From contig JANJGN010000035.1 of the NCBI GenBank assembly GCA_026770705.1, forward strand, positions 7,750,001 to 7,814,000: a DNA stretch of 64,000 bases, read 5' to 3'. Both the position numbers and the translations under genes were made by a program. The notes under the pieces were generated by a model. That model had not been told where the DNA came from and made no database searches. It saw only the letters and a list, made by a program, of their open reading frames with translations. Source of the DNA: Isurus oxyrinchus. Taxonomy: Eukaryota. This document shows positions 2,201 through 60,300 of this stretch, one piece after another; positions within the stretch are counted from its first letter, which is position 1; each line of letters begins with the position of its first letter.

Positions 2201-2249
2201 TCTCCCAACTCCAATCTTTGTTTTACTTTGATTATGCTGAAATGCCTCT

Positions 2250-5199: not shown

Positions 5200-5340
5200 T
5201 TTAGCCATGTTCTGAGGACGAATCGTATTGCACTCAAGATGCAAACTCTGTTTCGTTGTTGAACGATTCTGCCAGACTTCCTGAGTATTTTTAGCTGTTT
5301 GGGCTTTCATTTCAGATTTCCGGCATTGCAGCACACTTCA
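5200..5340 (+). mobile_element. Old Penelope-like 3' tail fragment
   Basis: GTTCTGAGGA...AAACTCTGTTTC...GATTCTGCCAGACTTCCTGAGTATTTTTAGC...TTTCAGATTTCCGGCATTGCAG resembles the tail at 35533-35632. Confidence 0.55.
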
Positions 5341-22750: not shown

Positions 22751-22799
22751 CAGCGTTTGTATCTCCTTAATTTTAACATTTTGTGCACATCCTTAAATC

Positions 22800-34732: not shown

Positions 34733-35632
34733 GGGCCCAAACAGTCCTTTCAAGTGAAGCAGCATTTCACTTGCATTTCCCCCAACTTAGTCTACTGCAT
34801 TCGTTGCTCCCAATGTGGTCTCCTCTACATTGGAGAGACCAAACGTAAACTGGGACACCGCTTTGCAGAACACCTGCGGTCTGTCCGCAAAAATGACCCA
34901 AACCTCCCTGTCGCTTGCCATTTTAACACTCCACCCTGCTCTCTTGCCCACATGTCTGTCCTTGGCTTGCTGCATTTTTCCAGTGAAGACCAACGCAAAC
35001 TGGAGGAACAAAACCTCATCTTCCGACTAGGCACCTTACAGCCTTCCGGACTGAATATTGAATTCAACAACTTTAGGTCGTGAGCTCCCTCCCCCATCCC
35101 CACCCCATTTCTGTATCCCCCTTTCCTTTTTTTCCAATAATTTATATAGATTTTTATTTTCCCACCTATTTCCATTATTTTTAAATATTTTAAAATCTTT
35201 TATGCTCTCCCCACCCCCATTAGAGCTATACCTTGTGTGCCCTACCATCCATTCTTAATTAGCACATTCGTTTAGATAATATCACCAACTTTAGCTTTAA
35301 CACCTATGTGTTCTATTGTACCTTTGTCGTTGACATATTTTGATGATCTGCTTCAATCACTGCTTGTTTGTCCATACAACCACACCCCCAACCCCCCACC
35401 GACCAACCCCACCCCCCCCACCCCCCCCCCCCCCCCCCCACCAACCTCGCTCTCTCTCTCTCTAGCTCTCCGCCCACCACACACACACCTTAAACCAGCT
35501 TATATTTCAACTTTTTCTTGGACTCAAACTCAAGTTCTGTCGAAGGGTCATGAGGACTCGAAACCTCAACTCTTTTCTTCTCCGCCGATGCTGCCAGACC
35601 TGCTGAGTTTTTCCTGGTAATTCTGTTTTTGT
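34733..35632 (+). mobile_element. 5'-truncated Penelope-like element: intact GIY-YIG endonuclease frame (34733-35083) plus 3' tail
   Basis: NLVYCIRCSQCGLLYIGETKRKLGHRFAEHL..CHF..EEQNLIFRLGTLQPSGLN is a PLE GIY-YIG domain with the CCHH motif. The tail ends GGTAATTCTGTTTTTGTT. Confidence 0.95.
35533..35571 (+). ncRNA. Minimal type I hammerhead-ribozyme-like motif (variant core CUGUCGA)
   Basis: AGUU-CUGUCGA-A-GGGUC-augag-GACUC-GAAAC-CUC-AACU. Stem I is AGUU/AACU and stem II is GGGUC/GACUC. This copy has CUC in place of the consensus GUC. Confidence 0.7.
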
Positions 35633-36361
35633 TCCAAAATATTTATTTTTCTTTAAGCTAAACACCAGAGTGTACAGGCACAATGTGCTCATTCTCCCAT
35701 TACCTTTCAGTCATATGAAACAGAAGGATTCTTCCTGTTGAAGAAAGTTATATAATTAAATATAGAGTTCCTAATTCCCACAGTGGTCATTTTGTGATCT
35801 CCACAAAGGCTAAAGCTATGGATGTATGACTTCATTTTAATTCAAAGTCATTTCTCTTGAAAGATGGGCCAGTATGCGATTTTTGCTTTTTGTCACTTGA
35901 TGCAATTAAATGCTAACTTTTCAGCTTCTTTGCACGAGCACAGCTGGTCTCTCTGTATTTCGTTGTTTTCCAAAAGTGACTATTTTAGAAATTTGCTGCT
36001 TTACTAATTTTCGTTCCAAATTGAGCGACTTGAGCCTTCATAAATTTTGTTGAATCTTCTGCCTTCCTACCCATTACATCCGCCGGTCATTGCTTAATAG
36101 CAGCGATTGTATTCCCCTTAGCAATCCTGTTCCCATCGACCTTTGGGTTATCAGCAAAATTGAATAAATCAATAGGCCTAAGATAATAACTTAGAGTGCA
36201 AAGCAAGGAATCACCAGAAGTGATCACTCCATACTCCTATATTGATGTAACAATTCTTTGTTTGTGTATCATTTGTGCTCAATTTGCCAGAAATAAACTT
36301 CAATTCTGCATAATTTATTGCCTCCAAATCCGTGTGACCATAACGTGAGTTTTACCTTTTT

Positions 36362-38460
36362 TTTTCATTTTTGCGATGTACACGTGTCTGACGCGGCCAG
36401 TATTTATTGCCGTTGCTTACTTTCCTTTAGAAAGAAGAAGGCCAGGTAAGTTCTTCAAACACTTTCGTTCACTGCAGGAATGTGCACCCTCAGAGAGGGA
36501 GTTCCGTGGTTTTGCCCACGAGACAGTGCAGCAACGGTGATTTATTTCCAAGACAGAACGGTGCAAGCCACGGTGGGGAACTTCCTGTGGATGGGGTTCA
36601 TGCGTGCCTCCTTCCACTGCCAGTCTAGATGATAAAAGTTGCAGCATTGGAAGGTCCAGCCTCAGAGGGTTTGCTGAGTTTCTGGAGTGCACCTTGCAGT
36701 TGGTACACTCTGACACCACGGCATGTCGAGGGTGGGCTGAGCGGCTGCTTGTGGTTGGAGTGTGGATCCTGACACCTCTTTTGTCCTTTACGGTGTCACG
36801 CTTCTTGAATCATGTTGATGATGCACCCATCCATGCTAATGAAAAGAATTCCCTCACAGCCTACACACATTTATGCATTTTAGCTGGTAATCAGGCTTTT
36901 GTGAGCCAAGACGTGAGTTAATCGCTGCAGGATTGCGAGGTCCTGAAATTCTCTTGTAGCCAAAGTAATTATGTGACAATTCCAGCTCAGTTTCTCGTCT
37001 ATGATAACCTCCAAGATTTTGATAGTGCTGGAATCAGCATATAATGTTATTGAATGTCAATGGGCGATTTTAGGTTCTCTTTCTTTGGTGGTGGCCATTC
37101 ATATGACCACAGCTGCGCAAATCAAATCTCTCATCTTCTTTTCGAACACATCAAGTAGTTCTGATCTCAGCTCCAAGGCTCCTGTAATACTTCTGCGATT
37201 TAAGGGAAAATGGCTAATTCAACAAAAATAAAATTAAACGTAAGCACACATATTTCAGGCTGATAGTTAAATTCAGTCTTACAGCGTGTCCAGCCAAAAA
37301 GTATCTTTTCATGGTCAGACCCACAATTAAAAGCCTTCCAGACATCATTCGTCGTAACTGCCTAACTACAAAAAATGTCAGCAATGTTATGTATGCAATA
37401 TGTTTTTCTTTAATACAGGCTTAACAGAATGTCCACAATTCTTTTTCCGAATGCTTGAGAAAACCAGACATCAAAAACATTGTTTTTACATCCGAAGACT
37501 TTTCTGTTTTCAATCCAGGATCCATTGTTTTCACAACTCTTTGAAACGCAGATCGTTCAAAATATAATTTTATCCAAGCTTTGATCTTGCCTTTGCTTAG
37601 TGTCAATACAAAATAACATCCCCACCATTATTTACTTATGCAACAGCTGTAATATGCAAGCTTCGGTTTTGAACCTCTGATTTCACTTTGATGCTCAAGC
37701 GAAATCTCAACTTATGTGAAATGGCAAATTTTAGTTCTAACCCATTCATTGGCACCTCAAACCTAGCACTTCCACCTCTTAATGCTTCAAACCGCCCAAA
37801 CAACCATACTCGGGTTAAGCTTGCGCATCTTAATCAAGTCACACACACACAGACACGCACGCACATGCACACACAATCTCACAGTTATTGCTTGGAACTT
37901 TTGTGGTTTGAATGTCTCTTGCCGCCTGCCTGCCATAGCCTACATATTGTCCAGCTATTTCTGCATTTGAAAATGGACTTATTAAGTCCCAGAAGATTCA
38001 GGACTGGTACTGAAAATTGTGCAACCATCAGCGGGCACCCCAACTTCTCACCTTAAGATGCAAAGAAGGTCATTGATGAAATAGTTGGAAATGGTTGGGA
38101 CCAGGACACCACCCTGAGCTTCTCCTACAGTGATGTCACGGAACTTAAATGATTGACGTCCAACAACTGCGCCCTACTTCAGTTGTGTTGGATCGGACAC
38201 CAACTGGCAGAAAGTTTCCCCCTAAATACCGTTGACACCATTTTTTCTCCCCATGCATTCATATGCAACGTTAAGCCATTGGGAAATCCGTTATCAAGAC
38301 CTGCTATATTGTGTCCACTGCTTCCCCTTTACATATGCCCTTCGTTATGCCTTTCTCAAAGCTCGAATGCATTTTTCAAGCATGGTTTTCCTTTCATACA
38401 ACCATATTCACTTCGTGTGCCTGTAAATCGCGTTTCTAAACGCAATGTTTAAAACCGTTA
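36362..38460 (-). mobile_element. Fragments of a CR1/L2-group LINE (3' end 36362-37110; RT piece ~38050-38460)
   Basis: Collinear with 57980-59100 (CCAG.ATTTATTG tail, CCAG.TCAGTTT.CGT, ATGGTTGGG.C.AGGAC). Confidence 0.7.
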
Positions 38461-39539
38461 GTAAGTTTCCAGCTTTCATGCAATCATCTTAACAGGCTTT
38501 TTCGAAGCAAATCCGTATTTTAAATAGCTGTGTTATATTTGCCAACTCCAAGTCCACTGACAGCTTTCAACAATCTCGAAGGAAGAACGTTTTCTTTAGA
38601 TGCCCTTCACTTCTCTGAAGAATCTGATATTCGCCGTCTTTTAGCAATCGGTTACCAAGCTTAAGTATGCTACTATGCAGCAAACTATTTTATTCGTGTT
38701 TTGTTGAGTATTTTGAAACAAAAAAGGAATGAATCAAAACTTTCCTTATTATCGTAGCTTCCTGTCCATTACTAAAGCAAAAACCTTCAACCCCCATTTA
38801 TTGATTTAGCTGATGAATGTACTAAATTGAAATAAATTACATGAACATGTAAAACACATTTTATTCCAATTAGCACATTTAAAGAGAAGCCCTTTTCAGC
38901 AGATAACCAGGTCTTTTTGCTTTAATGCAGTATTGCCCAATTCCCAATCCATCCTTCCAGATCAACTTGCGCATTATCATTCTACGGCGAGGGATATAAC
39001 AATAATCATCACAGGAATATTTCCTGAAAACATTGCCTATGCCAACCATATGCTAATAAGGAAGGCTCAAAACCAATACCCGGTATTTTGCAAGTCTATA
39101 ATTACCTCAGAAATAACGATTGCTACATCTATTAATTTGACCATCATGTGTAGTCATCAAATGGATGGCAATGCATCATATGAATTGAACATACAGAGAA
39201 GAACAGGCATAGGAAATATTTGCTGTTGAGCATGATCAGGCATTCGGTATTCTAATCTATCATCCATGTCAACCCAGCTTTTATGACTGCTCCCGCTAAT
39301 CCTGTGACTCCCTGAGAGATCACCAATTTTTCCAGCCGCACCTAGAATGTAGTCAAACAGGGCGCCTGCACTGGACGTCGGGTTGGAGAACTTTCAAGAC
39401 TCACTAACATCTTATAGGGAAATAAACCTCCTCATGGCACTATCTATTCTTCAACCCATCTCCTTCCTTTGCTTGAACAAAACCTGGCGCAGCTCCATAT
39501 CGGTGCTCTGTTCAAAGTCCAAAGAAAGTTTCTTAGGTT

Positions 39540-42500
39540 CATGAGTGAGCATCAATCCTTTGAAAAAAAAGAAACGGTTGCGTGGACAAATTGAACGAGA
39601 ATTCACATTTTTAAAACAAATTGTTTTTTTGTAAATGCCCCAACTGGTGCTAATATTGGACAAATAACAGGAAAGCCTGACTTGGGTTGTCCTGAACTTT
39701 TCTTTTTTTGAAACCATGGATTTCAATTCCTGAAATGTTTCACACGATCCTGCCGGGATACTGCTTAAGAATAAATCATGTATTATGCAAGCACGGAATA
39801 TACCATAATACACGAAATAAAAATGTTGAAGTTATTGCAATACACTTAATAGGGAATGTTTCAAACTCATGGTATTTCTTTTATGCCAGCGATCCCAACA
39901 CATAATTAACCATTTTCCAATGTCACATTATGAGGCTTCCATCGGTAGGTTTGCTGAAATTCGAATTTAATTTACTGGCAGCCTTTTCAACTTTCTCTAG
40001 ATGATTTTCTTCAGCTATTACCTCTCCCTGGAGCACCCTATTCCACAGCCTTAATTCACTGCTACTTAACTTCGGAGCAAGCACATGAGTACCCTAAGTT
40101 AAGGTCCCTGGGCGGATGTTTGATTTCCTATGAGAAGGATTAGACTTGTTGTCTGCAGTCTCTGGTAAACAGAGGCGAAGTGACAACTCTTTTGCGTCTC
40201 CCTGCCCGTTTGCGTGTGTCTCTGGACCTATGTCGCTAAGCAAAGGCACCGTTTTCTTTTTGTAGTTTTTTTTTACTTCACTAAATTACTAACCCCTTGG
40301 TATCCCATCTGTTAACGCAAAAAGTTGTAAAACCTCATGAAAATTGCAACTATAAAAACATTCTCTCAGAGCTTTCGGAATCCTGGTCACAAATACTTCC
40401 AAATTACGTAACAGCTGTTTTCACCTGTCTTAGCAACAACATATAATATATAAAGTAAACTGACAGCTGGCAATTTTACTACACCTACCTGCACAAACAT
40501 AAATTATAGTTATCTTTGAGAGGCAATGACAACCTTTTGCAAACTCCTATCATCGTTATCGCTATTTTATTGATACAGATGTTTCTCTAGCAGTGAAAAT
40601 ATATACGTATCAAATATATTATACCTTTCCATTATTTTCATATTATGCACAAGTCCATCTTGATCAGACCCCATTGCTAATTCATATTTGCGCTTGTTAA
40701 AGCATCTGGTATGATAATGTCCCTTTCTGCTGTATGAATGATTTTAAGTTTGCATTGAAATATTGTTAATGCAAAACGAAATAGCCACATGTTCGTAGAA
40801 ATAAATTTTGATAAAGGGTGTAAAAGAGAAATTTTCCTTACAAATAATTCTGCAAAGAGTACTTGCATATGTGGACTTCAAAATGTTTTAGAGCCAACAC
40901 CAAACACTAAGCCTATTTTCCCATAGTTGAGAAACTCTGCTGGACAAAATTAAACTTTCGAGAAAAGGGACTTCAGGGCCTTTTGAACTCCCTGCTGTCC
41001 TCCTGTATTTAATCTGCTCCAATAGCTACATCTCTGACATTATGGGAGTTCAAATGCCTTAGCATAATTTTGTGCTCTGATGATTGATGTGGTAGTCAGT
41101 ACAAAATTCAAGCTCTCAAAGCACTGTTTTCCCTCCTATAGTTATCCAAATGTATTTCTGTCTTTAACAAGTTTGTCAGGGGAGCTACAACAGTGCTGAA
41201 CATCGTAACGAAATTTCGAAACAGTGCACTCATTCCAGTGTACCAAATAATCATGGGTTGTGTCACATTGTGGCCAAAATAAGGCACGTTGTTTCAGAAA
41301 AAAACTTTTATGATTCTTTGGAACGGATTAAGCAATTGTTCATCGGTTGTAAATTGCCCTCAAAGATTTGGCTGGAACACCCAAGTCATCAACATGTGAA
41401 ACACATTTTGATAATCCTTCAGTTAAATTTGCATAATTGTTCAAAAATATCGATTGTAACTGTTGGTTTCCTGGTATTGAGTGTACATAATCCATGGACA
41501 CCCTGTTAACAGTTTCTTCAAAAGTTGGTTTCGATATTAGTGGTGTAGATTTATGGGTGATTGGTTTTCTACACCACGTGATATGTATGGCATCTGCGGC
41601 AGGACTTAAATATGTCCTTCTGTAATCCTCGCCAATAAATCTCTTTCAGCATTTTATCCTGCATTTTTCACATAAATAAGTGAAATGTCATTGTACTTAT
41701 GTGAGCCACTCATGAAATTTTGTTTCAATGCCCAGACGGAACTACGACCTGGCGACCTCCTGCGCATTTCTCCTCTACGTTTGTTTGTGATGTTATCCAA
41801 ATCCTCATTCACACTTCGGATTTTAACTAATAATACTCAAGCATTGGTTCTGATTCCGTCTCTGAGCAGCCTGTTTGTAACAATTGTCTGCACTCAGGAT
41901 CAACTTGATGAATTTCAATTAAAGAACATTGGTTCAGCATGTCATCCTGAACCTCATTTCTTTTTTTCATTTTTACACCTATGCTTGAATACGAAAATCA
42001 TCAATCAACCTAAATATGTCTAGATTGTTTTCTGAATAACTTAAATATGTGCTTAAAATTGGCTGATTTATTTGCAAAACTCTTTCATTTTAACTTGAAG
42101 CCAATTATATCAAATCTGTCATTCCCGGAAAAAATCATGCAGGTCAAATTTATTGTGCAGACATTTTCTCTTAATAGAAAATAAAACGCACATGTTATTA
42201 CATTTTTAAAGAAATGTTCAATTCGAATATCAATATTTTTACTTTGTTTTCAACTTACCATTGGAGTTAATGTTGTACAATAATTTAGATTTCACAGCAC
42301 ACTCTAAGTTAATCTCCATTCGATGTGTGCGTTCACTGATATCGACAACGATATCGACATATCTCGTTTAAACATGACAACCCTCTTGTATCTAAGTTTT
42401 TGTGATGTGTCCATGCGGTTGAAGTTTTGGAATTCGGAATTCCTGCACTGAAGTGTGGTGTAAGACCTGCGCTGATTTCAAGCAAATTCACTTCTGTGTG
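39540..42500 (-). mobile_element. Decayed Gypsy LTR retrotransposon (RT-RNase H at ~40680-41600; possible LTR-like region at 39540-40560)
   Basis: Minus frame LFRFAL..KLKIIHTAERDIIIPDALT (RNase H end). FSTVVAPLTNLLK at ~41160-41205. The LTR assignment is tentative. Confidence 0.7.
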
Positions 42501-44399
42501 ACATAGACAATAATTTCTTGGATGATGATTTTACTTTGTTATGGGACAGCTGATAGTAAATGCATAACTGTCCAAATCTCAAAACGAAATTTGAAACTAT
42601 TTCCAAATCGGTATTTGCAATTTGCATAGTGGGGAGAGTTTCTGAAATCAGAAAATGGTGTCCCCGTGTGCTTGTGATAACTTTATTGTAGCGAAAACGT
42701 TTAGTAAATAATAAGGCCAAAAAAACACAGTTACACTAACACACATGTATGACATCGCAGAGTAAGCAGGACATAGAAAACCATTCAGGACATCAAAACG
42801 TAACTACCATCATACCTCACTTTCCCTTTTGCTATTCAGCAACTATCCTTATAGATGTTAAAATATGGATAATTCCAGTAATTATTACCACTGTGTGTTT
42901 TCCCTCCCCTTGAGGTGCCCAATGAAGCTGACAGCGACTGGACCTCCATGCCTAGCCATGTTTGCCTTGCATTCCACAAGTTCTGACCAGCTATCCTGCT
43001 ATCTTCTGTGAAATCTAAAAAGCTGTTCCACCACAAAGGTTTCAGCATATCATTAAATACGAGCCTTCATTTTTTTTCCTTCTATTGCCTCAATTAGTAT
43101 CAACAAAAATGCTTTCATCCAAGGAGGGATTAATCGTTCCTTTACTCTAGTTTTTAGGCTTGAATAAATGCCCTATATTTACCTTAATTACCTAGAGCTT
43201 TTATAACCTTTACATATCAATTCTTGATATACATCAAATCAAATTAAAATATATTATTTATTTATGTACAATTCTGTTTGAAGTTCCTCTTGGCTAATTA
43301 ATCTGTAAAAAACAGTCTTTACTGTTGGTTTGGTTCTTGCAGTCACCCTGGACCTTGCTCCAATTATCATTGTTAAAGCCAGAAAAAGCCAATTTTCCAA
43401 TACATAATAAAATTGGCACTGGTAATACCGGAAATGAACATTCACACTTAAAAAAATGGTTTCAATTTCTCAGCTCCAATTTCCTAATTGCTACTTACAT
43501 AATATACCTTGCATTCACGTGATAACAGGCCCACGGTTTTGGCATCAATGGAATTAATGTTTCCCGAGCATTCAAATGTCCAATCTTCCTTACAACTTAA
43601 ACCTTTTCTCAAGCACCTGCAATTAGGTTAATTAGCCCAGCCACATGCATTATTTATACGTTAAATGGCTGCAAATTATGGACTCCATTTAAACAGTCTA
43701 ACACTCCAAAAGTATACCTTTGGTATGGTCAGTGTAAACAAAAGTTTCTGATGAATTGCTGGTAACATAATTATCATGAAATTGCAATGCCAGCACAAAA
43801 CTCAATGTTTCCGTGTCAAAAGTGGAACACATTCGTTGATGAATTTTAAACTAATTTCAAAAATATCGTACAATCTCATACCTCTTTCGTCTCCATGCAG
43901 CAATACAGCACCAATTCCCTCATCACCTCTATCAATTGTGAATTTAAAGTGATTGGCATATTTACGATGTTGCTGTTGTTAAAACATTTGCAATTTTTTG
44001 AGTGTATTTGAGAATCTGAATGCCCCTGTGCATTTTTGTTATTTTTTTTAATACCTCAGTTAATGTGGCAACCACAATCCTAATAATTGGCATGGTATAA
44101 CTCTCTGAAACATTCATGCCTCAGAATCGTAAATGTTCCCTTTTCTTTGAAGCCACCCGTCTATCGGCTTCAATTTTGCATCTCGGTTGGCCATCTGATC
44201 ATGTCCAACACTCTAGCTCAAATATGTAACCTGTCCTTATTTAAATTCTTTCTTAGCCAATTGGCCAGCAAATTAGCTTCTTTCAGACGATCAAATTGTT
44301 CTCCCAGCTTCTGTATGGTTTCCTCCGATGTTTGACGGAATACCATCAGAGTGATAATTTTGCACAGCACAGTAACTCGGTCCAATAATGAACATAAAA

Positions 44400-45283
44400 A
44401 CAAAAAAAAAAAACGATGGATGCTGGAAATCCAAAACAAAAACAGAATTACCTGGAAAAACCCAGCAGATCTGGCAGCATTGGCCGAGAAAAAAATAGTT
44501 GATGTTTCGAGTCCTCATAAGCCTTCAAGAGAACTGAGTAAAATTAGGAGAGGGGTGAAAAATACGCTGGTATAAGGTGGGGGGGGGAGGGGGGGGGGGC
44601 TGGGTGGTAGGTGGGGGGAGAGAAGTGTGTGGGGGGGTGTTTGTAGGGAAAGCAAGCAGTGATTGGAGCAGATATTCAAATGTTGTCACAGACAAAAGAA
44701 CAAAGAGGTATTGAAGGTAGTGATATTATCTAAATGAATGTGCTAATTAAGATTGAATGGCAGGACACACAAGGTACAGCTCTAGTGAGAGAAGGTGGAA
44801 TAAGACTAACAGGGCATAAAAGTAAAAAAAAATAAAAATAATGGAAATAGGTGTAAAAATAATAATCTATATGAATTATTGGAAAAAAAAAGCAAAAGGG
44901 AAGGGGAAGAAATGGAAAGGGGTGGGGATGGATGAGAGAGGTAAAGACCTAAAGTTGCAGAATTCAATATTCAGTGTGGAAGGCTGTTATAGGCCTAGTC
45001 GAATAATAAGGTACTGTTCCTCCAGTTTGCGTTCAGCTTCACTGGAACAATGCAGCAAGCCAAGGCAAGGCATGTGGGCAAGAGAGCAGGGTGGACTGTT
45101 GAAATGACTAGCGACAGTGAGGTTTGAGTGATTCTTGCGGGGAGACCTCAGGTGTTCTGCAAAGCGGTCACCCAGTTTGCATATGGTCTCTCCACATTGA
45201 GGACACCACATTGGGAGCAACAAATGCAGTGCACTATGTTGGGGGAAATGCAAGTGAAATTCTGCTTCACTTGAAAGGAGTGT
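44400..45283 (-). mobile_element. Penelope-like element, inverted arm (GIY-YIG plus tail)
   Basis: ETICKLGDRFAEHLRS..SHFNSPPCSLAH..EEQYLIIRLG. The tail with a hammerhead-like motif lies at 44497-44535. Confidence 0.93.
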
Positions 45284-46598
45284 GTAAGGACTACGTTCCA
45301 TTCACTCAGTTCCTTCGCCTCTGTTGCATCTGTTCTGATGATGCTAAATTCAAAAGCAGTTCCTCTGACATGTCCTCCCTCTTCCTTAACCAAAGTTTTC
45401 CACTCACGGCCGTTGACAGGGCCCTCGTCCGTGTCCGGCCCATTTTCAACACATCTGCCCTCAGGTCTTCTCCTCCTTTTCAGTAACATGATAGGGTACC
45501 CCTTGTCCTCACTTATCACCCCACCAGCCTCCGCATAGAAAGGATCATCCTCCACCCTTTCTACCAACTCCAGCATGTTGCCACCACAAAACACATCTTA
45601 CCTTATCCCCCCTGGTGGCATTCCAGAGGGATTGTTCCCTCCAGGACACGATGGGCAACTCCGCCATCACCCCTACTCATCAACCCCCACCTACGGCACC
45701 TCCACATGCATACACAAAAGATGCAACACGTGCCCCTTCTCTTCCTCTCTCCTCACCGTCCAAGTGCCCAAACATTCCTTCCAAGTGAAGCAGCTTTTCA
45801 CTTGCATTTTCCCGAACTTAGTCTACTGCATTGTTTGCTCCAAATGCGGTCTCCTCCACATTGGAGACACCAAACATAAACTGAGCGACCACTTTGCAGA
45901 ATACCTGCGGTCTATCTGCAAGAAAGACCCACACCTCCCTGTCACTTGCCATTTAAAAATCCAACCTATTTTCTTTCCATCATGTCTGTCCTTGGCTTGC
46001 TGGTTTGTTCCAGTGAAGCTCAACGCAAACTGGATGAACAGCACTTCATCTTCCGACTAGGCACTTTACAGACTTTCGGACTGAATATTGAAATCATCAA
46101 CTTTAGATCTTGAACTCTCTCCGCCATCCCCACCCCTTTTCCATCTCATTCCCCTCCATTTTGTCTTTTTATCCAATAATTTATATAGATTATTATTTTC
46201 ACAAATATTTCCATTACTTTTAAATCTATAACTTTTATGCCCTGTTAGTCCTATTCCGCCCCACCCCCCACTAGATCTGTACCTTATGTGTCCTGCCATC
46301 CATTCCTAATTATCACTTTCGTTTTGATAATGTCACCACCTTCAACGTCTCTTTGTTCTTTTTTCTGTGACATCTTTTGATTATCTGCTCCTATCACTGC
46401 TTGCTTGTCCCTACAATGACAGCTTCCCGCACTTCTCTCCCCCCACCCCCACCCACCATAAACCAGCTTATATTTCACACCTCTCCTAATTTTCTCAGTT
46501 CTGTTGAAGAGCCATGAGGACTCGAAACGTCAACGTTTTTCTTCTCCGCCAATGCTGCCATAACAGCTGTGTTTTTCCTAGGTAATTCAGTTTTTGTT
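45284..46598 (+). mobile_element. Penelope-like element (Neptune-type): RT thumb, linker zinc finger, GIY-YIG and tail; frameshifted
   Basis: KDYVPFTQFLRLCCICSDD..VDRAL, CIHKRCNTCPF (C-x4-C-x2-C linker), NLVYCIVCSKCGLLHIGDT. Confidence 0.93.
46497..46534 (+). ncRNA. Minimal hammerhead-ribozyme-like motif (variant core CUGUUGA)
   Basis: AGUU-CUGUUGA-A-GAGCC-augag-GACUC-GAAAC-GUC-AAC. Palindromic ACGU in place of stem III, GUC cleavage triplet, one stem II mismatch. Confidence 0.7.
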
Positions 46599-49500
46599 GA
46601 CAAATATGAATTTATTCGTTAGTCACTAGAGTTTGGTTGGTGCACATTTCAATGCCAAATTTCATCACTTCAACTGATATAGTCCATCTGGCATCCCAAA
46701 AACTAAAATCTTCTTTGGGCTATCCGATGACACTACTCACTAATATCCTCTCAGGGTGACAATTTTTTGCGAAAAATTGCAATTGTCCCACGTTGTCTAT
46801 GCAATCTTGCAAACGTGGAATGTGATATGAATCCGTGTTTGTCACTGTGATTGCTTTTCGATAATCTACAAGCAGCCTATATGATCCATCTTATTTTGTT
46901 GCCTTCATAATGGTTGAATGCAAGTTTCAAGAACAATGCTCAAACGTATTGTTTTGAAGAATGAATTTAATTTCCTTCTCTCCGTGCGATAACTTCACTC
47001 GAATAATTCTATTTTGGTCTTACCTTATCGACAATGAATCACGTACATGTATGTGAGCTGCAGCTAAATTTGTTTCCCCGTGCTTATTCCTACACATGGA
47101 TTTGTGTTGTCGCAACAGCTTCTACAAATCACCGTCATTTGTCTGGAAGGTAACTCAATATTACATTTAAAATTTCAAGCATCCCCACATTATCCAATTT
47201 ATTAGAGGAAAGTTAATTTCAAAATATTTCTTTTCCACTCCGCCTCCTTATTTACCACCATTAAAAGATTTTTGATTATCTTTGCTGTAAAATACGTTTT
47301 TAACATATTAACATGACAGACCTTTTGTTCCATTCTTCTATTTTGAGTCTTTTTTAAATAGCACACTTCAGTAATCTTCTTCTCAATCTTGTAAGGTCTA
47401 ATAAACCTTGCCTTTAATGGCTCACCCATAACTCGTAATAAAACTTGCACAGCTTTCCCCCGCAGAAAAACTACGTGCTGTGGCGTTAATTTCTGTCTTG
47501 GTCTTCATCACCTGCAGTGATCTATTGAAATGTTCCTTCTGTAAATCACAAGCTCTGTTTAATATTTTCTAGAACTTTGATAAAGAATCTAAGAGTGTGG
47601 TCTCTGAATAAACAGCTTTGTATACTCAAACCGTTTTATTTTCGGTCCTTTAGCTTTAACTCTATCAATTTCCTTGAGTTAAACACTTCAGCGTCATTCT
47701 CCTCCATTCTCTCTTCCTGATCAAACTTTTCAAAGATTGTTATATTTTGTACGTCAGTTTCTTTCCACTGTGTTGCGGTATTCTAGTACTGATTGAACTC
47801 ATGGCATTGTAGCCGTGATGCCACACAGTCTGGAAAAAAAAAAAAACATGCTGATTTTACCGCAGCTGTTCTAATACATTAAGGTTCACCAACATGTGTG
47901 ACCCAGCTATATAATTTTAACAAGATAAGTTGTAACACTGCAATAGGGAAGTTCTCATGTGCTCTTTCAATCACTTCAACTGTTTTCAAACTTATTTTCG
48001 ATTCACCTTACAAAAAGGAAATGTCTTGCTTTTCCATGAATTTCTTTAATATAAACATTTGTCTGACAAATATCCTCGGGACAACAAATGTTGTTACCCA
48101 TAAACTGAATAGCTCCCTTATTAACATCTATAATATTGAAACACATAGATGAAATCTTGAAACAGTTCTGCTACACATCTTTCAGCATCACTTCGAATAG
48201 ACTGCGAATCCATTTTGAGATCTTCGCCTAACATTTGGGCCTGCTTTTCTAGTTGTACAAATTCCAACTAGTTTCTCTTGTTCTTAGCGTTTTATTTTAC
48301 AGAATCTTTTATAGTTCTTAGAAATTCACAAGGATTCCCATTTAACCCGAGCACACTGATGTTATATGACCAAAATTGTTACAATGGTTAACATTTCAGC
48401 TTTCTTTACTAACTCTCAGAACCTTCCCCCTTGCTCTGAGTCGATTTTTCAGTCAGTGGCTTCTTTGGGATTTGCCCTACAATCTACTTCTGTTTAACAA
48501 CAGTTTCACCGTGACTTTGTGCCACAGCAAAATCCCACTTCTAAAGAATCGGATTAAAAGTTCATATCTCTACATTTTCATTTGCTTTAATTGAATACAA
48601 TCTAAATAAAATAAAACTCAATCAATCACCTGCTCTTTACTATCTCTGAGGTTCACGTCTGCTAAGGCAATTTTCTGTAGAATTGGCAATAACCGTAATT
48701 GCAAAAAGAAAAATTTACAGAATAATCATGGAACAATACCCAGAGATAATCGCCCTTAAAACCTGTGGAGTGGCAATCAGAGTCAAAGAGTGATATTGTG
48801 CCCATAGTTACGTGGAAATGAATACCCTTCGGGATGGTGTGGGGGAAGGGGCAGGATGGAAGTCCTACTGGTACATAGAATTTTAATTGTATTTTTTCTA
48901 ATTCTGTTCACATTTTCTGTGCAACAATTAATGGGAGACAGTCAAAATCATTCCAATTTTGAGAATTGTTTCGCATCTTAGCATCGGATGATTCCAGAAG
49001 TTGGGTGATTGCCCAATGGAAGTTTGAACTCCGCAGCAAGTGTTGTGTAATCGTTTTCTGTTGGCTCGTGGTGTCCGAGTTGTGCTGTGATCGCAGCACA
49101 ACATTGGACCATCACCACAATGTCACCCAGGATCTCAGAATTTACAGACCACAGAAAGCATGAAGAATAATTAATGCACACATGATTTCAATGTTGCTTT
49201 GATAATCCCGACGTGTATTAACCACATTTATCCAGTAAACATTCGTCCATTCAGCTCACAAAATACGAAGCAGGAATTTTTTTTTCAGTGTATTTTAAAA
49301 ACTAAGCTAAAAATAAAAGACATTTGTACTTCTATTCAAATAAATAATCTTCAGAAGAACTTTGTCTTTAGGACGAGGCAGGGAACTTATCAATTCTAAT
49401 GTATTCACCCCTCAGAATCAAAAAAAAATCCTTCTTACTGAGCAAAGGGCAAATTTGTTTAGTGTAAATAAGATCAGAGATAAATACATTGAATTGAAAA

Positions 49501-49839
49501 ATGGCGTGGGAGCCTAGAAATTGGATTCATGGTCCACTGGCAACAGTTCCACTGGAAATCGAACACAGGGTCGGCCTTCATCTTAAACCCATTCGGACTT
49601 ATGTTCTGATTAATCGGTGAATCCCATAACGAGTCTTATGGATCGGCCATTCAAAAAATATGAGGGTTGGGCACGGATCATCTGAGATGAGTTCACAGAA
49701 TTAATGAGTTAGAAAATGCAATCGAGCAGATAATGAAACAATAAATGGTACCGGAGGGTAGAACTGAGGGAGACAGTTTGCAAATATTTGAGAAAACAAA
49801 CAAAAAGTATGGTTAGGTTTCATTCTTAAAAACAAAATG

Positions 49840-52190
49840 AATTAAAGGCTCTGCATCTGAAATTCACCAGGTCCGTTGCCAAATGGCTGAAATTAGCGCA
49901 GAAAAAAGAATAGACGACTATAATGTACTAGCTATTACAGAGATGTGGCTACAACTAACGGAGGTTCAACCTTAAACATTAAAACATTTTTTTGTGATTC
50001 AAAATGACAGAATGGAACGGAAATGCTCTGGGATTTCGCAATTAATATGCCCTCAGATGGTTACAATAGTGAGCTGGGGTCTAATTTCAGGAGATCTGTT
50101 TGAATGGGAGTAGTGAATCGAAAATTGATGATAACACTGGTAGAATTGGTTTCTTGCTCCTACCCACTCATCGCCCTTCACTTCCACCGCAAGTGCAGCT
50201 ACAAAATAGGACAAACTGCGCTTCAACAAGTACTTTAGCTTGGAAGAAAAGCATTGCAATACACTTTGTGACTCGAAACTTCACGTTGATTGGATAAACA
50301 AGATTTCCTTTTGTGCGCTTAGCATGAGTTCATAGAATGTAATGGGGACAGTATTTTCGTGCAATACTTCCAGGAAGCTATTAGGTGCCAGACTAAGTCT
50401 GGAGCAGTGGTACGTAATGAAAAAAAATCCCTAATTCTCGAGAAAGCAAAGGAAGAGGAATAGCTAATTCAATTTTATACTGAGTTCTCTGGGCCTGATA
50501 TCCCTCAGTATTGAATTAAATAAAAGAAGTTGCAGAACTAATGATGTATTTCTATCACAATAGCAGTAGAAATCTTTCAATTACACCAGAAATTCTAGAA
50601 AGTTACCAATGCATCTTTCATGTTCCAGAAAAGCCCCGAGAATGCCGACATGAATCTCGATGTCAGTAAATTTTTTGTGTTTGATTAGAAACTGCTAGAA
50701 CACATTAGTAAGGAAATAGTAGCAGAATATTTTGAAAATAATAATGCAGTCCAGCAGATGCTACACATTCATGTGACAGGGAAGGCATGTTTTACTTATG
50801 TGTTGGAGTACTTTGAACATTTATTAGGCCGGGTGGATAAAGCCGAAGCAGAAGATTTAGTATAATTGGATATTCAATATTCATTCGATCAGGACATCAA
50901 TAAAAGCAAAAGTCTGCTTTTCTTAATCTTAAATGAAGTAAGAAAACGTTGAGGAATAAAACGTCGGCAGCTCAGCAGGTCAGCAGAATCCGTAGAGAGA
51001 GAAAAAGTGTTAATATTTTGATGTGGCGTGAATCTGATTCTGAGGCAGAGCTGCTCATCTTATCCAGCATTGTCCTTTCCTTTTGCAATAAAGACACATA
51101 ATCTGCCCGTTATAAGCTTCCATTAAAAAAGGACTTTCGACAGAAATGGGTCATTTTTAATTGTAAAGTTTAACTATTGGACTGGGAGAGGAATCACTGT
51201 GAAGACCTTAACTATTGCCGATGCGTATTACATACGTGGAAGAAAAGGGCAACTGTGCTGAAGCCAAATGCAAGGCAAGTTCGAAAGGCCAGCACAATTT
51301 GAGGCAGATCAGAAGGTATGGAGAACATAAGCAACTGGACCCATATTTGATTCATTGAACATGATGTGGACAAATATGATGTTGTTCACTTTGACTGAAA
51401 GAATAGGCTAGGCAAGAACATATCTTAATCGAAAGAGGCTGCAGAACATTCTGGCGTAGAGGGGCATTCGTGTGATTGTAGGTGGAACACAATCATGTCA
51501 GCCATCTGGTAAAACAAGAAATTAGTAAATCAAAAGACATAAGGTCCTTTATTGCAAGGGCAATGCAGAATAAAGGAGGCAGTAGTGCAATCTTGATACA
51601 ACAGTGCATGTTATTGGTTCGACTACACCCAGTGTACTGTATACAGTTTTGCTCACCCTGAATCAAGAGCCCGTAAGATATAATTGAATTTTGAAGTAGT
51701 TCACACAAGGCTGATTCAGAGAATTTCGGGAGAGAGAATGTTGCCTTGTTAAGAAGTGTAGGGCAGGTTTCGAATACACTCGTGGCAATTTTGAAATAGG
51801 AGGGTTGATTTTATTGAAGCATACTCTGTATGGGGCTTGACAGGGTACATACTGAGTTGATGTTTCCCATTGACGATGGATTTAGATTCCGAGTTCCCTG
51901 TTTCAAAATAAAGAGCCTCCCAATTCAGTTGGAAATCCAGAGCAACTTGTGTTTTCCGCAAGTAGGTTGAGTTCCTTATTACCTCCACAGGATAGTAGTG
52001 GAGCCTTAATCATTAAATGTCTTCAAAAAAAAGACACGCAATTTTCTGATTGACTAGGACTTCAAAACCTGGGGAGCGGCGGGCCAGCAGTCAGGAATGT
52101 GGAGTTAAGGCCACAAACATTAACGATATTGAATGGCGGAGCGTGCTTTGGCGGCTGAATTGTGTACTTGTTTTATTCTTATTTGATAAT
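49840..52190 (+). mobile_element. Decayed, internally deleted CR1 LINE ORF2 with a small Penelope-tail-like insert at ~50940-51090
   Basis: LKALHL..YNVLAITEMWL (EN start), L-V-R-L-H-P-V-Y-C-I-Q-F (RT C-terminus at ~51615-51650), CR1 3' tail at ~52120-52190. Confidence 0.8.
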
Positions 52191-52389
52191 GTTTGTATGT
52201 TGTTATCCATTATTCAAATACCTAACCCCCTATATTTGGTTGCTTCCTAGACCGTACTCTTGATCGATATACTGACATAGGGGTCGTAATTTGGATTAAA
52301 ATCGAAACTAAACTTCTGTCTCTATATTGCATGAACATCAATGACAAAGTATTGTCTGACATTATGTCAGGAGTATTGTGAAACTTTTG

Positions 52390-52600
52390 AACATATATAT
52401 TGTTTAAACAGCACCAACTTGAAGCAAATGTGCCAAGTGATTATCTCAACATTGATTACAGGATCGATACTTGCACATACGTCCGCCACTGTTTAAATGA
52501 GTATAACCTGAAGCGTAATTCAAGTGCAGTTCAGTCGTTCTGAAGTGCATTGGGTCATTCTGCGAATATGCAAAAACCTATCAGCGCAGGGGCTACTTGT
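52390..52600 (+). mobile_element. Possible decayed Deu-domain SINE 3' half
   Basis: Weak resemblance (TTATCTCAACATTG..GATC..TGCAC..GAAGTGCATTGGG) to the DeuSINE core and tail. Confidence 0.3.
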
Positions 52601-54759
52601 TTACAGTTGAATGTTATATCTTAAAGCCGAATGTGTGTTGAAAGCTAGTGCTGAATTCATTTGCTTTCTTCTTCAGAGTAATATGATGCATATAGTACAG
52701 GAGCTGTGCAAGAGACCCGGGCTGAACAAATCAGGCTTTGTCAAGCAGGCCATCTATATTCCAGATCTAAGCAACGTAGGCTTGTCTGTTTCCATATCAA
52801 TAAGTGTGCAAGGCTGACAGAATGAGTTTTTAAACAGGCAGTGCAGACCACTCGTTATGTATATTTTTGATTACTTCCTGGTAGGAGTCTCGTGGCCTGA
52901 GGACCGTCAACAATATGATGGATTCAAATGGAGGTAATTCGGAAGTTGCATCCTGACCGGCTCTGGGAAGGGTGTCTCATCTTAGTGAGCATGTAGACTT
53001 ATTTGAACGAGATGAAGAATTGTCAAACGAGTTGCATACAACAACATAATCCGTGGAAACAGGTAATTTAAATCATTTTAAAGTCTGTTCTTCCAAAATA
53101 TAAATGTTTTCTCTTCCCATGAGGGAAGAGGGCAGCGACCATATCTTTGAATCACAGGTACCAGAAATGACGTGTATCTTAAGTGAAGTCAACTGGCCAA
53201 TGCCACTTAATTGATTCAATCTTTTGGAAGGGTGGGGGGGGGGGGGGGGGGTTGGTGTGTGGTGGCGGTGGATTGGGGGGGGGGGGGGGGATTTTGAAGA
53301 AGAACCCAACGGGGATCCCTGGATCCCTGCCAAGGGTGGATGAATGCGGCTTGAAGGTATTTGGAGCTGCTTGTTGCTTTTGCTTTACATTTTGTAACAT
53401 CTTTGAAGGCAGCAGAGCACTTTAGAAGAAATGACTGTGAGTTGCGCCAGTGCATTCTGCAACACATTCATGCAGGAGCTGCATCAGTAGGTATTAGAGC
53501 AGCGAAAACTAATTCTAAATCCGGCTAATTTATGAAAGCATCTCACTGTAGAGATTTGCATCATTTTTTTTAAACAGCGGTGTGATGCATTTCTTTGGAT
53601 TCCAGGCACGTGCTTATAATGTAGGAGCGCACATTCATGGATGAAAAACGGGGAGGGAAGTTTGTGTCATAATGAATAAATCATTGAAACTCCACATGCC
53701 TTGCTGTACGAACTATTGGTGTGATAAAAACCGATTGATTTTCCAAACTACATTTGCACAGTATGAACTACGCTCCTTATAAAAACATTGTGATAAGGCT
53801 CCACGTGGACCAAGCATTCAGTTTTACAAGGCCAACAGGTGTGGGATTGGAAGGCTGGTGATGATATTCGGAAGGAGAATGACCAAAATAGCAACAAATC
53901 TTAAGGTTCCCTGGGATCAGGAACGAGGGTGCTTATTAAATTTCCAAAAATGAATTTTTACCTCAGTGAATGTATTATTCATAATTTTGAAAAAGGCATG
54001 CCATTTTCAAATTTAGTTTTCAAAGAGTCCTTGGTTTCTATAACCTTAATAGTACTTCTCTAGGCAAAAGCCTTTTGAATTTTCTAGCCGTTAGATGCAT
54101 TTTGAACTTCAGCATTTAATATAGTGTAAAGTTTGTGCCTCTGTAAAACAGACCCTACGCAGCCAACCTGATTTGTTTGGCGTAGAAGCCATCGAAAATC
54201 ATCTAATATTTCCAATGTCGCATTATAGACAGCATTTACATTTCCCGTTCTCCCTTAATTTGGTGGTACCTTAGGTTCTACGACTTCACAATGAATTGCC
54301 AATAGTAGTACTGGATAAGAGGCATTTTAATTAAGGATCGTTAGGATGAGAAAATTATGTTGTCTTTGTTCTGTTTTCTATGGATGTCGAAATCATTTGG
54401 ACTGCCACCCAATACCGTTTGTCAATCAGATGCAAGGAGTCTGCAGAACAATGAAAAAGACGATCAGTCGATCAGTTGAAAACACGCCTAATCAGCTTGA
54501 GAATTACTGCGAATTTATCATCAACACAACTAGATGCCAGTTCCAGGAGAACAGATGATATTTTAACATATTTTCTATTCAGGGTATGCATTATACTCAG
54601 TGAACAAAGAAATATTAAAAAGGTTGCTTAAAGTGGTGCAAGAAAATACAATATAATAATGAAAGAAGGGAAAGCGACAAACAGTCTGCACTATATAATT
54701 AGCAAGAAACTTGAAAATGCACTCTCCAGGCAAGTGCAAACTATGGCATTACGCTCGTT

Positions 54760-57260
54760 ATTTCGCATTGTACTTGAAGCGGACGCTTAGGAGAAACAGG
54801 AGGTGAGTACTTGGCTCTTGTTTACTAGCTCCTGATATTTACTTAAGCTGCCGAATGCGGATGGCTGGTCAATGTAATTTTTAACTCAATGGTGACTCTC
54901 CAAGATGCTGCCTCTTAGTGATCGATCGATGGAAATTGCCTTGAGTATGAATGGGCAAGTTTAAGGCGTCTCGTCACGGAATGATAATTGTCTTGCACTT
55001 GCCTGGTTCGAATGTTCATTGTCAGTTTTCAACGAAAGTCTGAATATTGCCCAGGCCTTCTTGACCCTAAACCAAAAAATAAAATGCTCTTAACTACCTC
55101 AGGAATCAGGATGGCATTGAACAGATTGATATTAGTAGTCAAGTCCTCATTTCTCTCCTTTTTATAGAGCGAATATTGCTGATGAAACAATTGAAGATGT
55201 TTGGACGTGGAACAGGTCTATGATAAAATGCTGCAGCAAAGAAATGGAGCTCGAATGTTTCACCGAAGCATTGCCATTTTCCTGTCTCTTCTGTAATACT
55301 CCAGGCAGCAAAGGAATCCAGTTAGACGATTCCCTGATCTCCATTCACTTTAATTATACCAGGGCTCCTTCATGCCAAACACCTTCAAACGTCCCCGACA
55401 ACACGTTTCCCCCTTCCCCGCCCCTTTGATGTCAAGGGCACTCAGCTGCCCATCACATCTTGAATTGTAGTATTTTTTTAATGTTTGCAACATGATTGTA
55501 ACCAAATCAGTATTGGAGTGATTTTGACTGAACCAAACCAGATAGCAATTTTTTGTTTTGTAAATGCAGTTTGATAGCAATGCCATCGGTGCCGCATGCC
55601 ACAGTCTTGATGATTGAGAAATGGCAGATGGGGCGATACTTTTTCATTTAGATTTTGCCCGGGTTTCAGTGGAAAGGTCATACCAGAGAAACGTTTTCTC
55701 CAAGTTGCCGGGTGTAGGCCGGTGTAGTAGCAGCACTAGAACATCTTCTCAGTTCTGCCGCAGAAGTATTCAGTGTGATGTCTAGTATGGTTTTAGAGTG
55801 CGGTTTGTTTGCTTCTTCCAGTCCATTCGGCTTGTTGCTGCCAGCCCGTGTTATAATTTTATTTAGCTAAATACAGGAATTTGTGAATCTTTGAAACTCA
55901 TATGGAAGCTGAGTTAGCTCATGAACGCAAAACCTCTGACTAAAGATGGCTGCAAAAGTTTCAGCCTTCTTTTTTCTTATAGAAGTGTGTTGCTCGACAA
56001 TTAAGGATGGCAGTACTTTAGTGCCCCGCCACCCCCACCCCTTTTGTCACAATCACCCACTTTCTTCAGTTAGATATTTAATTGCCGACAACGATTCTTT
56101 ACTGGATGTGACATTACTACATTTTTTGAGCTGATCCATTCGTTGCTGTATTACCTATCTCAGTTATGTTTAGTTCGATATCTGAGCAATTGGTATGTGG
56201 TCATGTCGATGTATTGTCATTCGCCTGATACTCCAGGGACAAGCGTTTGTATCCCAAAACGACAGATGGTGGAATTTGAATTCAATAAAAATATGGAATT
56301 ACAATTATTTAATGACTGTGAAACCATTTCTGATTGTCCCTAAAACCCAAGTGGTTCACATATGTACTTTAACTCTGCCACCCTTACCTGGGCTAGCCTA
56401 CATGTGACTCCAGGCCCACATCAATGAAACTCAAAGCCCTCTAAACAGTGCAATTCGGGATGTACAATCAAGTTTTACCTGGTCAACATAGCCCACCTCC
56501 GATGAACGAAAAAATAAATAGATTTGTTTTTGTTTAGCCACATTGAGACTGCCATTTAACCAGGAATGATTCCTGCCTTTATCTTAATTATGTAGTGAAT
56601 AATATGTCCGATGATGATGTTAGAAATTGTGGGGTAAAATGTATCTTACGATCCTGAACCGCTGAGCTTCAGCGATGCCAAGTTTTCAACTACTAGATCT
56701 TTTCTGAATCGAACCAGTTCGGGAAGTACTTAGATCCATCGATGTTGGTCGATTAATCATGGAGAGGTCAACCAGCTTTTTTCCATCCTGCTCTCTTCCT
56801 CACCAACTGCGACAAGCACAGTGTAGCAAATAAGCTCTTCATGAGTAGACCAGCTCAATCAGTTGTGGTGGTATCACGATATCATTTATAAAAGGAATTG
56901 ATCTCCTGTGTCCTGAACCCATTAAGTGTCCTTGATGTCCTCCGTTCCTTTGTCTAACGTATATATGACCTAACGTCATGAAAAGTCGTGGGATCGTGAT
57001 GCAACTTCAATGATCAACAGGGAAATACTTTCAGAAAGAAATGAACCTCTGTGGCACGACCTTTGGCGAGTATGCCCTGTACGATGGACAGTCATGATAA
57101 ACAGTGAGACTATGACCATGGCTGTCAAAGCGGATTCGAAAGGAATGAATACATGAATTGGATCATTAATTTCTCGATGACAGATTTGTCCAATTTTGGA
57201 ACATTTGTCTTTGGCTGCACTTGCAGATCGCTGTTGGATGGATCGTCCGTCTTGAATTCT
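54760..57260 (-). mobile_element. Decayed CR1/L2-group LINE (EN plus RT)
   Basis: Minus frame FSQNHSNTDLVT..SALDIKGA (RT domains 2-3). The EN region at 56530-57260 is collinear with 60020-60300. Confidence 0.8.
56215..56520 (+). mobile_element. SINE inserted in the LINE
   Basis: GGTGGAATTTGAATTCAATAAA..CCTACATGTGACTCCAGGCCCAC..A-rich end. Reverse-complement homologs at 62100-62410 and 63705-64000. Confidence 0.75.
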
Positions 57261-57979
57261 TCTTCATTTTTCCCCTGAAGTTTACAAATTGAAAGGGCAT
57301 TTCAGAGATGATTAATTGTCAACCGCGTCTTCTGGTCCAAAGCGACACACAATGAAATGCACGCAGGTTCACTACCTGATGGATATCAATAAATTTATTT
57401 AGCAGATATGAGAATTTGGCAGTTATATAGTCCAAACTGTTGTGATGGAACTTTAACTAGCAGAGTTCCAACACAGGGCCCGTGGATTGCGACTTCACTT
57501 CCCCCATGAGCACAGACCGTCGACTTACCTCCGCCCTGACTATGATCACGACCAATCCCAAAGGACTGTCCTCCTCCAACGCAGGACCACAAACCCTCAC
57601 GTTTCTTTCAGGACCTCCCACCTCCTGGTTTTAGGACTCCAGAACAAACAACGGGATCTGCACCACTGCAAGCTGTGATTTCAAACTTTACCCCTGGACT
57701 TCGGGCAACCACAGAATAGACACCCCTAAGACCGAATCCGATCGCATGACACCCACAGAAATTGCGTGCTCACAACTCTACCACTTCCCCGCCCCCCCAA
57801 ACACCCCCCACCCCCCCCCCCCCCCCCCACCCCCCACCCAACCCAGCCCCTATTGCCGGTTCAAGTCAGGTTAGACCGTTAAACGGCACCGCTCAGCTGT
57901 AGGTATCAGCTGATCACTAATGGAACCTTGAAGGGAAAACAACTGTGGACCAGTTGGCATTTTACTGTCCAAGTCATGT

Positions 57980-60300
57980 TTCATTCATTTATAGTGGGTG
58001 ACCTTCGCTGACTGGACCAGCATTTATTGTCTATACCTTGGTGACTTTCAGATGGTGGTGATGGGATGTCTTCTATAGCTGCTGCGGTCCATGACGTCCA
58101 GGTACATAAATAGTGTTTTGATGATAATAAATTACGTATTTCTACACAGTGACAGTGAATTAACAGCGATATAATTCCCATTCAGGTTCCTGAGCGAAAT
58201 GGAAGGGAAATTCCAGCTAGTGCTATTGCAAACTATTTCATTCCTTTGTGGATTATATGGTAGTTGTCATGGGTTTGCAAGATGCTTTCAAAGGAGTCTT
58301 GTGGAATTCCTGATGTTTATGTGATAAACGGTTCACATTGCTGCTCCTGCACGTCGGTGGCAGAGGGTGTGAATAGTTGTAGATGTTGTAGAAATCATGC
58401 GGGCTGTTTGGCACTAGATGGTGCCAAGCTTATTGAGGCTTATGGGAGCTGCACTCAGGCAGGAATTTAGGCAGTACTCCATCGCACTAATGCATTGTGC
58501 TTGGTAGATGCAATCAGTCTTTCAGGAGTGAAGGGTGTATTTACTGCTGGCACATTGCTTAACATCTGAAATGATCCGGTAGCCAAAGCACTTACATGGC
58601 TATTCCAGTTCAGTTTTCGTTCAATGGTAAACCCCACGAAATTGACATTGAGAGACTCATTAACGGTACTCCAATTGAATATTAAGGGGCAGTGGTTGTA
58701 GTCTCACCTGTTGGTGATGGTGACTGCCTGGCATTTGTGTGGCGTGAATATTACTTGCAAATTGTCATCCCAAGACTGGTTATTATCAGTTATCTATGTA
58801 TTTTGTCATGGAATGCTTCAGTCTGTATGGAGACGTGAATGGCGCTGAACCTTCTGTAAACATCAAGAACATCCCCACTTCTGACCCTATGAAGGAAGGA
58901 AGTTAATTGATGAAGCTGCTAAAGATGGTTGGGCCAAGGACGTTACCCTCAGGAAATACGGCAGTCATGTCCTGGAGCTGAGGTGACTGACAACCAACAA
59001 GCACAACCGCCTCCATTCTGTTAGGTTCTGAGTGCAACCAGCGGACAATTTGCTTCATGATTCCCATTGGATCGTGTCCTGCTCATCCTCCTTGTTGCCA
59101 CAATCGGTCAAATGTTGACTTGATGTTAAGGGCTTTATTTATAATCTCACCTCGTGAGTGCAGCCCTTTGCCTATGTTCAAAGCCTGATTCTAATGAGGT
59201 CCGGACCTGAGTGGCCCTGTCGAAACCCAAACTCGGCAGTGAGCAGGTTATTGCTAAGTAAGTGATGCTTGACAACATTGCTGATGGGCCTTCCATTACT
59301 TTGTTCATGATCGAGAGTAGACTGATAGGGTAATTGGCTCAAAACAAAAACAGAATTACCTGCAAAAACTCAGCAGGTCTGGCAGCATCGGCGGAGAAGA
59401 AAAGAGTTGACGTTTTGAGTCCTCATGACCCTTCGACAGAACTACGTTGACGTTTCGAGTCCTCATGACCCTTCGATATAACATGGAAAATTGGCTGTTT
59501 TGGTTTTGTCTTGTTTTTTGTGTGCACAACACACATGGTCAAGTTTCCACATAGCTGGGTGAATGCCACCGTTGTAGATGTACAGGGACAGCTTGGCTAG
59601 GGGTGCTGCAAGTTCTTGAGCACAAATCGACAGTGTCATTGTCGGAATGTTGTTATGGTCCATAGCCTTCAGCTCTTTGGTGATATGATGTGGAGTGAAC
59701 TGAAGCGGCTGAAGACTTTCATCAGTGATGCTGGGCAACTCTGGATGACGCACAAAGTTATCTTCAAGTCGTCACTCCTGCCATTAGGGTGTAGCAAATG
59801 GAACGGCCTAATCCTTTCCACTGATGTGTTGGACTCCTCTATCATTGAGAATGGGGTTAATTGAGAAGCTTACCACTCATTGCGTTGTTTGCTTTTCAAC
59901 AAGCATTCACGACTAGATGTGACAGGACTGCGGAGTTTTGATCAGATCCGTTGATTGTGGAATCGCTTAGGCATGTCCATCACTTGCTGCTCATGCTGTT
60001 TGGCACGCACGTGGAGCTGCGTTCGACCTGAAGCCTTGAGACTCCATGGGGTGGAGAATCGATTCTTTCAATTCCCTTTGCGAGTCACCCCTGCCTCTAT
60101 ATGACTCTGTCAACACGTATGCTGGGCCCGCCATCTGGTTGGATAAAACTCACTTTAAGAGTTGGTGATGATGGCTCCTGGACCATTTTAACAATTGTTT
60201 GATACCATGAGGATGCCTATCGCAGGCTGGTGCTTGATGATACTGTGAGAGCGCAGCCCCAATTCTGCCACTATTCTGAAACTCTGCACTCGGCTGCATT
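57980..60300 (-). mobile_element. Decayed CR1/L2-group LINE (3' tail, RT, partial EN)
   Basis: SLQPLQFTPHHI..NNIPTMTLSICAQELAAPLAKL..HPAMWK..HKKQDK..AN (RT N-terminus). PEGNVLGPTIFSSFIN (RT domain 4, ~58905-58952). Confidence 0.88.
59341..59480 (-). mobile_element. Solo Penelope-like tail with a tandemly duplicated hammerhead-like core
   Basis: Near-identical to the reverse complement of 35533-35632. A 31-bp unit is repeated at 59406-59436 and 59446-59476. AATTGGCT occurs on both flanks. Confidence 0.92.

Follow-up and report, generated by a model that had tools for sequence, protein, structure and literature searches.

Metazoan Penelope-like elements (PLEs) carry in their pLTRs minimal type I hammerheads, which show a short stem I, a 5-bp stem II, an extra nucleotide after A9, a G10.1-C11.1 pair, a palindromic 15.2-16.2 and no stem III (Cervera and De la Pena, 2014, PMC4209133); the same source describes the activity of these minimal motifs as low. 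The motif studied here shares this architecture and the pLTR position, but its core reads CUGUYGA and not CUGANGA, and the sole core variant named in the main text of that paper is U3-A8. A natural substitution at position 6 is described for the hammerhead of phage Bcep176, A6C, which is slow in Mg2+ (PMC3088659, PMC7151607). Unlike the phage hammerhead, the present one has U, is a minimal dimer-type motif and is fixed in ~10^5 copies of a eukaryotic retroelement, and its A6 ancestor and a C6 side lineage coexist in the same genome. The third related system is Poseidon PAc of Anolis carolinensis, which also shows RT and GIY-YIG, two classes of 3' ends ~33 nt apart and an apparently uncut template (PMC11167929). 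It differs from the present element, which has a Neptune-type linker and a hammerhead ~130 nt upstream of the first ATG, whereas that of PAc overlaps the ATG, and the main text describes no core change for PAc. According to the same source, cleavage by the anole hammerhead requires protein, no reads end at its cut site, and its catalytic mutants leave insertion in vitro unimpaired. The function of PLE hammerheads is debated: they are proposed to process precursor RNA, were found dispensable for insertion in vitro, and have even been taken for passengers. No natural A6U hammerhead was found in the literature searched, and the A6U core variant of this known motif in a known element class is probably new.

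The element and its copies in the window

The window is the whole stretch of 64,000 nucleotides that was analysed, within a genome of 4.98 Gb. It contains the following features:

5208..5326, + strand: strongly decayed tail from an old A6 family, with CUGAGGA at 5212-5218 and the second core half decayed
34733..35633, + strand: 5'-truncated PLE copy of the youngest subfamily (F6), with the GIY-YIG end, 3' UTR, hammerhead and short tail
35520-35532: direct repeat GACUCGAA, also found in L002, L162 and L194
35533..35571, + strand: minimal hammerhead motif with lesion G16.2C, core CUGUCGA, U6 at 35540; cleavage would fall after 35567
44402..45283, - strand: left arm (long-tail end) of an inverted PLE insertion belonging to the older subfamily F4
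44497..44535, - strand: decayed hammerhead motif, core CUCUUGA, U6 at 44528
45283..46598, + strand: right arm of the inverted PLE insertion (joined at 45283), short-tail end
46497..46535, + strand: hammerhead motif, core CUGUUGA, U6 at 46504
59341..59443, - strand: short insertion of hammerhead and tail, beginning at the 5' edge of stem I
59405-59443, - strand: hammerhead of the short insertion, U6 at 59436, lesion G12A
59446..59476, - strand: 5'-truncated duplicate of the motif, beginning at U6 (fifth motif of the window)

The preliminary description had reported four tails with U at position 6 and private lesions in each, and all four motifs, their U6 and their lesions are read in the window at these positions. 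The motif at 44497 carries G5C, two stem II changes and G16.2A, and that at 46497 one stem II change and a change of the last base. A strict descriptor finds two of the four, against one match in total across 50 resampled windows. The four motifs are not four independent insertions: those at 44497 (-) and 46497 (+) lie in the arms of one inverted insertion, 44402-45283 (-) / 45283-46598 (+), so the window contains three. The tail at 5212, taken before as canonical, does show the CUGAGGA heptamer, but its GAAAC half is decayed and it is therefore canonical in its first half only. Rfam covariance models gave no match in the window, and missed natural A6 copies as well.

At L077, tandem units follow each other at distances of 3,353 and 3,340 nt and are 99.5% alike, and a 926-residue open frame encodes RT, a CX4CX2C linker and GIY-YIG. 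The protein matches RVT_1 (E=7e-8); the GIY-YIG match has E=9e-4 in the full protein, under the curated cut-off, which the fragment from the window exceeds. The CX4CX2C upstream of the GIY-YIG match (P0001) corresponds to the CX2-5CxxC linker before the endonuclease, which defines the Neptune/Nematis clade (PMC8557442). The exact leader pattern of the element has 3,761 matches genome-wide, and 20 of 30 copies containing the ORF leader extend upstream of the motif, as in a tandem or partial-tandem pLTR arrangement. Counted from C3, the 3' ends form two classes, at +96 to +100 (75 of 177 copies) and at +131 (45 of 177), which fits the optional 30-40 bp tail of PLEs, and an inverted, 5'-truncated copy typical of EN+ PLEs is present at window position 45283. 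On its sequence, the element is an EN+ PLE with a single ORF, RT plus C-terminal GIY-YIG and a Neptune-type linker; the Penelope-like identity proposed earlier for the tails thus holds, since RT and GIY-YIG frame, tandem pLTR, inverted copy and tail are all present. A non-LTR retrozyme, whose tandem repeat unit is non-coding, does not match the 3.3-kb unit seen here, which codes for RT-EN.

Two other kinds of repeat are found in the window. A decayed repeat of >1 kb shows at least four copies (2234-3769, 11565-12818, 22789-23412 and 27589-27945), which neither an open frame nor a recombination signal identified. At 8067-9686 there are nested inverted repeats with arms of 69-114 nt, 89-99% complementary, possibly another fold-back insertion.

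Position 6 and the history of the subfamilies

With the rest of the pattern fixed, U6 is found genome-wide in 86,140 of 88,527 exact-pattern copies (97.3%), A6 in 180 (0.20%) and C6 or G6 in 2,207; reversed-pattern controls gave no match genome-wide. The proposal that A6U belongs to the whole lineage is therefore upheld by 86,140 U against 180 A: U dominates the tabulation and an A6 consensus was not found. The A6 frequency is near that of T-to-A decay in the tails (2 of 1,925 sites in 77 copies), and the late A6 copies are scattered tips of a tree of 40 rows in which F6 was subsampled, so they look like isolated back-mutations. That these late copies form a hidden A6 subfamily was rejected, as they occur in all upstream backgrounds and as scattered tips. 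An assembly artefact was rejected too: contigs with four different organism labels contain U6, and it is present on either strand. An arbitrary sample of 96 stretches of 10 kb (960 kb), taken at round coordinates, contains 80 tails, 54 of them of U6 subfamilies, which scales to ~280,000 copies. Of its 40 readable U6-subfamily copies, 38 have U, one C and one A; the lone A6 copy, decayed and of 82% identity, was probably misassigned to these subfamilies. In contigs from public runs, whose RNA origin is a guess, no non-U letter exceeds 5% at position 6 on the young reference under any of the four organism labels, and on the A6 reference U makes up 36%, 59%, 73% and 100% of the depth.

A hand count of the first 100 of the 2,207 C or G matches gave 85 CUGCUGA, nine CUGCCGA, one CUGCAGA and five with G. 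CUGCUGA is often present in both arms of one insertion, which indicates a real C6 side lineage; this C6-U7 lineage (L176-L195) has ~1,900 pattern copies and the same substitution as the phage Bcep176 variant. Canonical CUGANGA motifs number 10,380 genome-wide (control 65), and nearly all of the first 100 have older loop types; searches based on CUGANGA miss the dominant hammerhead family of this genome.

Consensus lines and tree order the subfamilies as a ladder, which starts with F1 (A6 U7, loop AUACG, U17) and continues with F2 (U6), F3 (loop AUUCG, A10.2G), F4 (loop AUGAG, C17), F5 and F6 (C7). At the level of sequence, it shows an A6 ancestor, a single A6U change and then five further subfamilies, in all of which position 6 remained non-A. 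The consensus of the ancestral F1 has the canonical core C3 U4 G5 A6 N7 G8 A9, which the U6 majority does not, and F1a and F2 differ at one of 39 motif sites, position 6. Median divergence from the own consensus falls from 7.0% in F1a (seven copies) to 2.6% in F6 (20 of 47 copies), although not monotonically, as F4, a mixed group, shows 7.0%. The lineage had been called comparatively young, which does not hold for A6U itself: the change predates five later subfamilies and occurs under four organism labels. Older still is a CUGAAGA family (L095, L102, L092) with a canonical core and a C.A mismatch in stem I, repaired in F1. A further, still older tail family, in which stem II differs (A-U at 10.1-11.1) and the loop has 3 nt, is found at:

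L158:1126-1162
L137:8130-8166
L357:777-813
L387:726-762

Apart from A6, the minimal type I architecture described for the tails is confirmed in all eight subfamily consensus lines: G12 A13 A14 A15.1, U16.1, G10.1-C11.1, the extra base after A9 and the palindromic 15.2-16.2 are invariant, and N17 is U or C (H17 kept). Pairing of stems I and II was also claimed, and 93% of cells do pair, but within the U6 lineage there is no two-sided stem covariation, solely a one-sided A-U to G.U change; one two-sided pair change is seen, only in comparison with a distant family represented by four decayed copies. Between F2 and F6, 71 of 329 UTR sites, 11 of 78 third codon positions and five of 39 motif sites differ, the last being N7, N17, two loop II bases and the stem II A-U to G.U change, which keeps the pair. 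No variation is seen among the F2-F6 consensus lines at the 22 sites of core, stem I and palindrome. Four of seven free sites do vary (P=0.0015 for the difference), and so do 73 of 310 sites in the UTR (P=0.0035) and 12 of the 78 third codon positions (P=0.041); the comparison consists of five changed sites in consensus sets of three to 20 copies, with the F5a set enriched for C6 by sampling and the UTR columns partly of low complexity. The tail next to the motif is conserved as well, with eight of 61 sites variable, so the constraint may not be ribozyme-specific.

These data bear on one explanation of the U6 motif, that A6U is a working natural variant with a useful cleavage rate in dimeric form or in complex with the element protein; its substrate would be an RNA pool for translation, turnover or circularisation and not the integration template. 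While flanking sites diverged by 14-22%, no other catalytic position changed, and U17C, which produces the GUC triplet, followed A6U in parallel to the A6 sister branch F1b, which has the same 10.2 and N17 changes as the U6 lineage. The anole PLE hammerhead needs protein to cleave (PMC11167929), and A6C is described as nearly rescuable by Mn2+ (PMC7151607). However, mutants of the CUGA turn show low activity, rescued by no single or double mutant when another hammerhead was scanned pairwise (PMC9901934). U6 came with no compensating change in the core, and position 6 has also drifted to C, which fits relaxed constraint. We consider a working variant possible but rather unlikely.

Insertion junctions and the copied template

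A cut template is expected to leave 5' junctions directly after N17, and no junction peak is present at the cut site in U6 or A6 families. There are 786 copies truncated between A14 and the cut site, many of the 30 inspected being inverted pairs, and the first 100, counted by hand, fall into classes of 23, 6, 16, 24, 14 and 17 over six positions. A second junction pattern matched 1,026 times; in a hand count of the first 100, 30 lie at the cut site, ~23 of these 30 explainable by small deletions or microhomology, and the cut-site junctions by this pattern represent under ~1% of copies. None of 30 ORF-reaching copies starts at the cut site and 25 run through it, while in the 960-kb sample two of 54 U6 copies begin near it, one being a locus edge and one real. 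A6 families show 17 cut-site junctions against ~4,000 tails, the denominator being pattern-counted intact tails.

The 5' ends pile up instead within ~9 nt upstream of C3, in A6 and U6 families, with many short head-to-head pairs; examples are window 59341-59443, L083, L245 and L259. A hand count of the first 100 young copies places the 5' end of 24 at 1-9 nt before C3, among them five pairs that are arms of single insertions, and 22 of 54 random U6 copies and nine of 26 random A6 copies have their 5' end between -9 and +8. Since the junctions run past the cut site and pile up 5' of the core, both A6 and U6 forms were apparently copied from uncut RNA. The pile-up likely marks the RNA start, which places the 5' end of the copied RNA likely just upstream of stem I, and the pattern supports that cutting is dispensable for integration; alternatively, a cleaved tail might not be used as template. 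The A6 ancestor is likewise without cut-site junctions, so the junctions do not distinguish A6 from U6 and are no evidence that A6U had any effect on activity.

In F5 and F6 the motif's 3' half recurs as a direct repeat, GACUCGAA, which was built stepwise just upstream of stem I, and in some copies it is predicted by folding to pair with the 5' core half. A permuted second hammerhead formed through this repeat was rejected as cause of the pile-up, which is also present in subfamilies lacking the repeat and has junctions to -9. Splicing to an acceptor at the stem I AG is not supported as the cause, because most junctions keep the AG and upstream bases. At L150, telomere-type hexamer repeats directly adjoin a truncated copy.

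The pile-up also bears on a second explanation, that the motif is catalytically dead and was kept as the first 40 nt of the transcript, serving as internal promoter or in RT binding, or through hitch-hiking with a few master copies. An RNA start just upstream, as the pile-up suggests, would fit it, as would the conservation of the neighbouring tail, and the Penelope element of D. virilis is reported to contain an internal promoter (PMC2377424) and Naiad PLEs to thrive without canonical hammerheads (PMC8557442). Against it, the five changes sit where a hammerhead is free to change, which a promoter would not predict, and we regard a dead motif as unlikely.

Function of the U6 motif

The preliminary description left a functional variant and a crippled ribozyme side by side, and of these two the evidence speaks rather for an attenuated ribozyme whose fold is conserved. 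The explanation that we favour, with modest confidence, is that cleavage by the A6U PLE hammerhead is likely attenuated, its fold likely still selected, and cutting likely not needed for integration. The element RNA would start just 5' of stem I, and the element RT would begin at two tail sites and copy through the uncut motif to the RNA 5' end. Such read-through would yield the short and head-to-head copies, and the hammerhead fold would be retained for residual, protein-assisted cleavage or for RNP recognition.

A more specific proposal, which we hold to be speculative and improbable, is that A6U was favoured for throttling self-cleavage, sparing the template and displacing the A6 relatives, with the fold kept as a 5'-terminal recognition structure. 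If true, this would be a ribozyme on its way to becoming a chiefly structural RNA, and a single genome would preserve its ancestor, intermediates and revertants. The A6 ancestor, U6 intermediates, C6 branch and A6 revertants form an ordered natural series differing at one to six positions, which could reveal whether catalysis was lost while the element grew to an estimated 280,000 copies.

Folding predictions for natural copies give a gap between the ensemble and the open hammerhead of 2.1 kcal/mol for F1a, 3.0 for F2 and 2.1 for F6. An origin of A6U as a cure for misfolding is not supported, since the first U6 form (F2) is predicted to fold worse than the A6 ancestor. For A6 revertants of F6 the predicted gap is 5.9 kcal/mol, with U4-G8 fully paired with the cleavage site. 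Because A6 in the F6 background would pair the core onto the cleavage site, U6 may now be entrenched, and in these models the changes that entrench it may be the later U7C and U17C.
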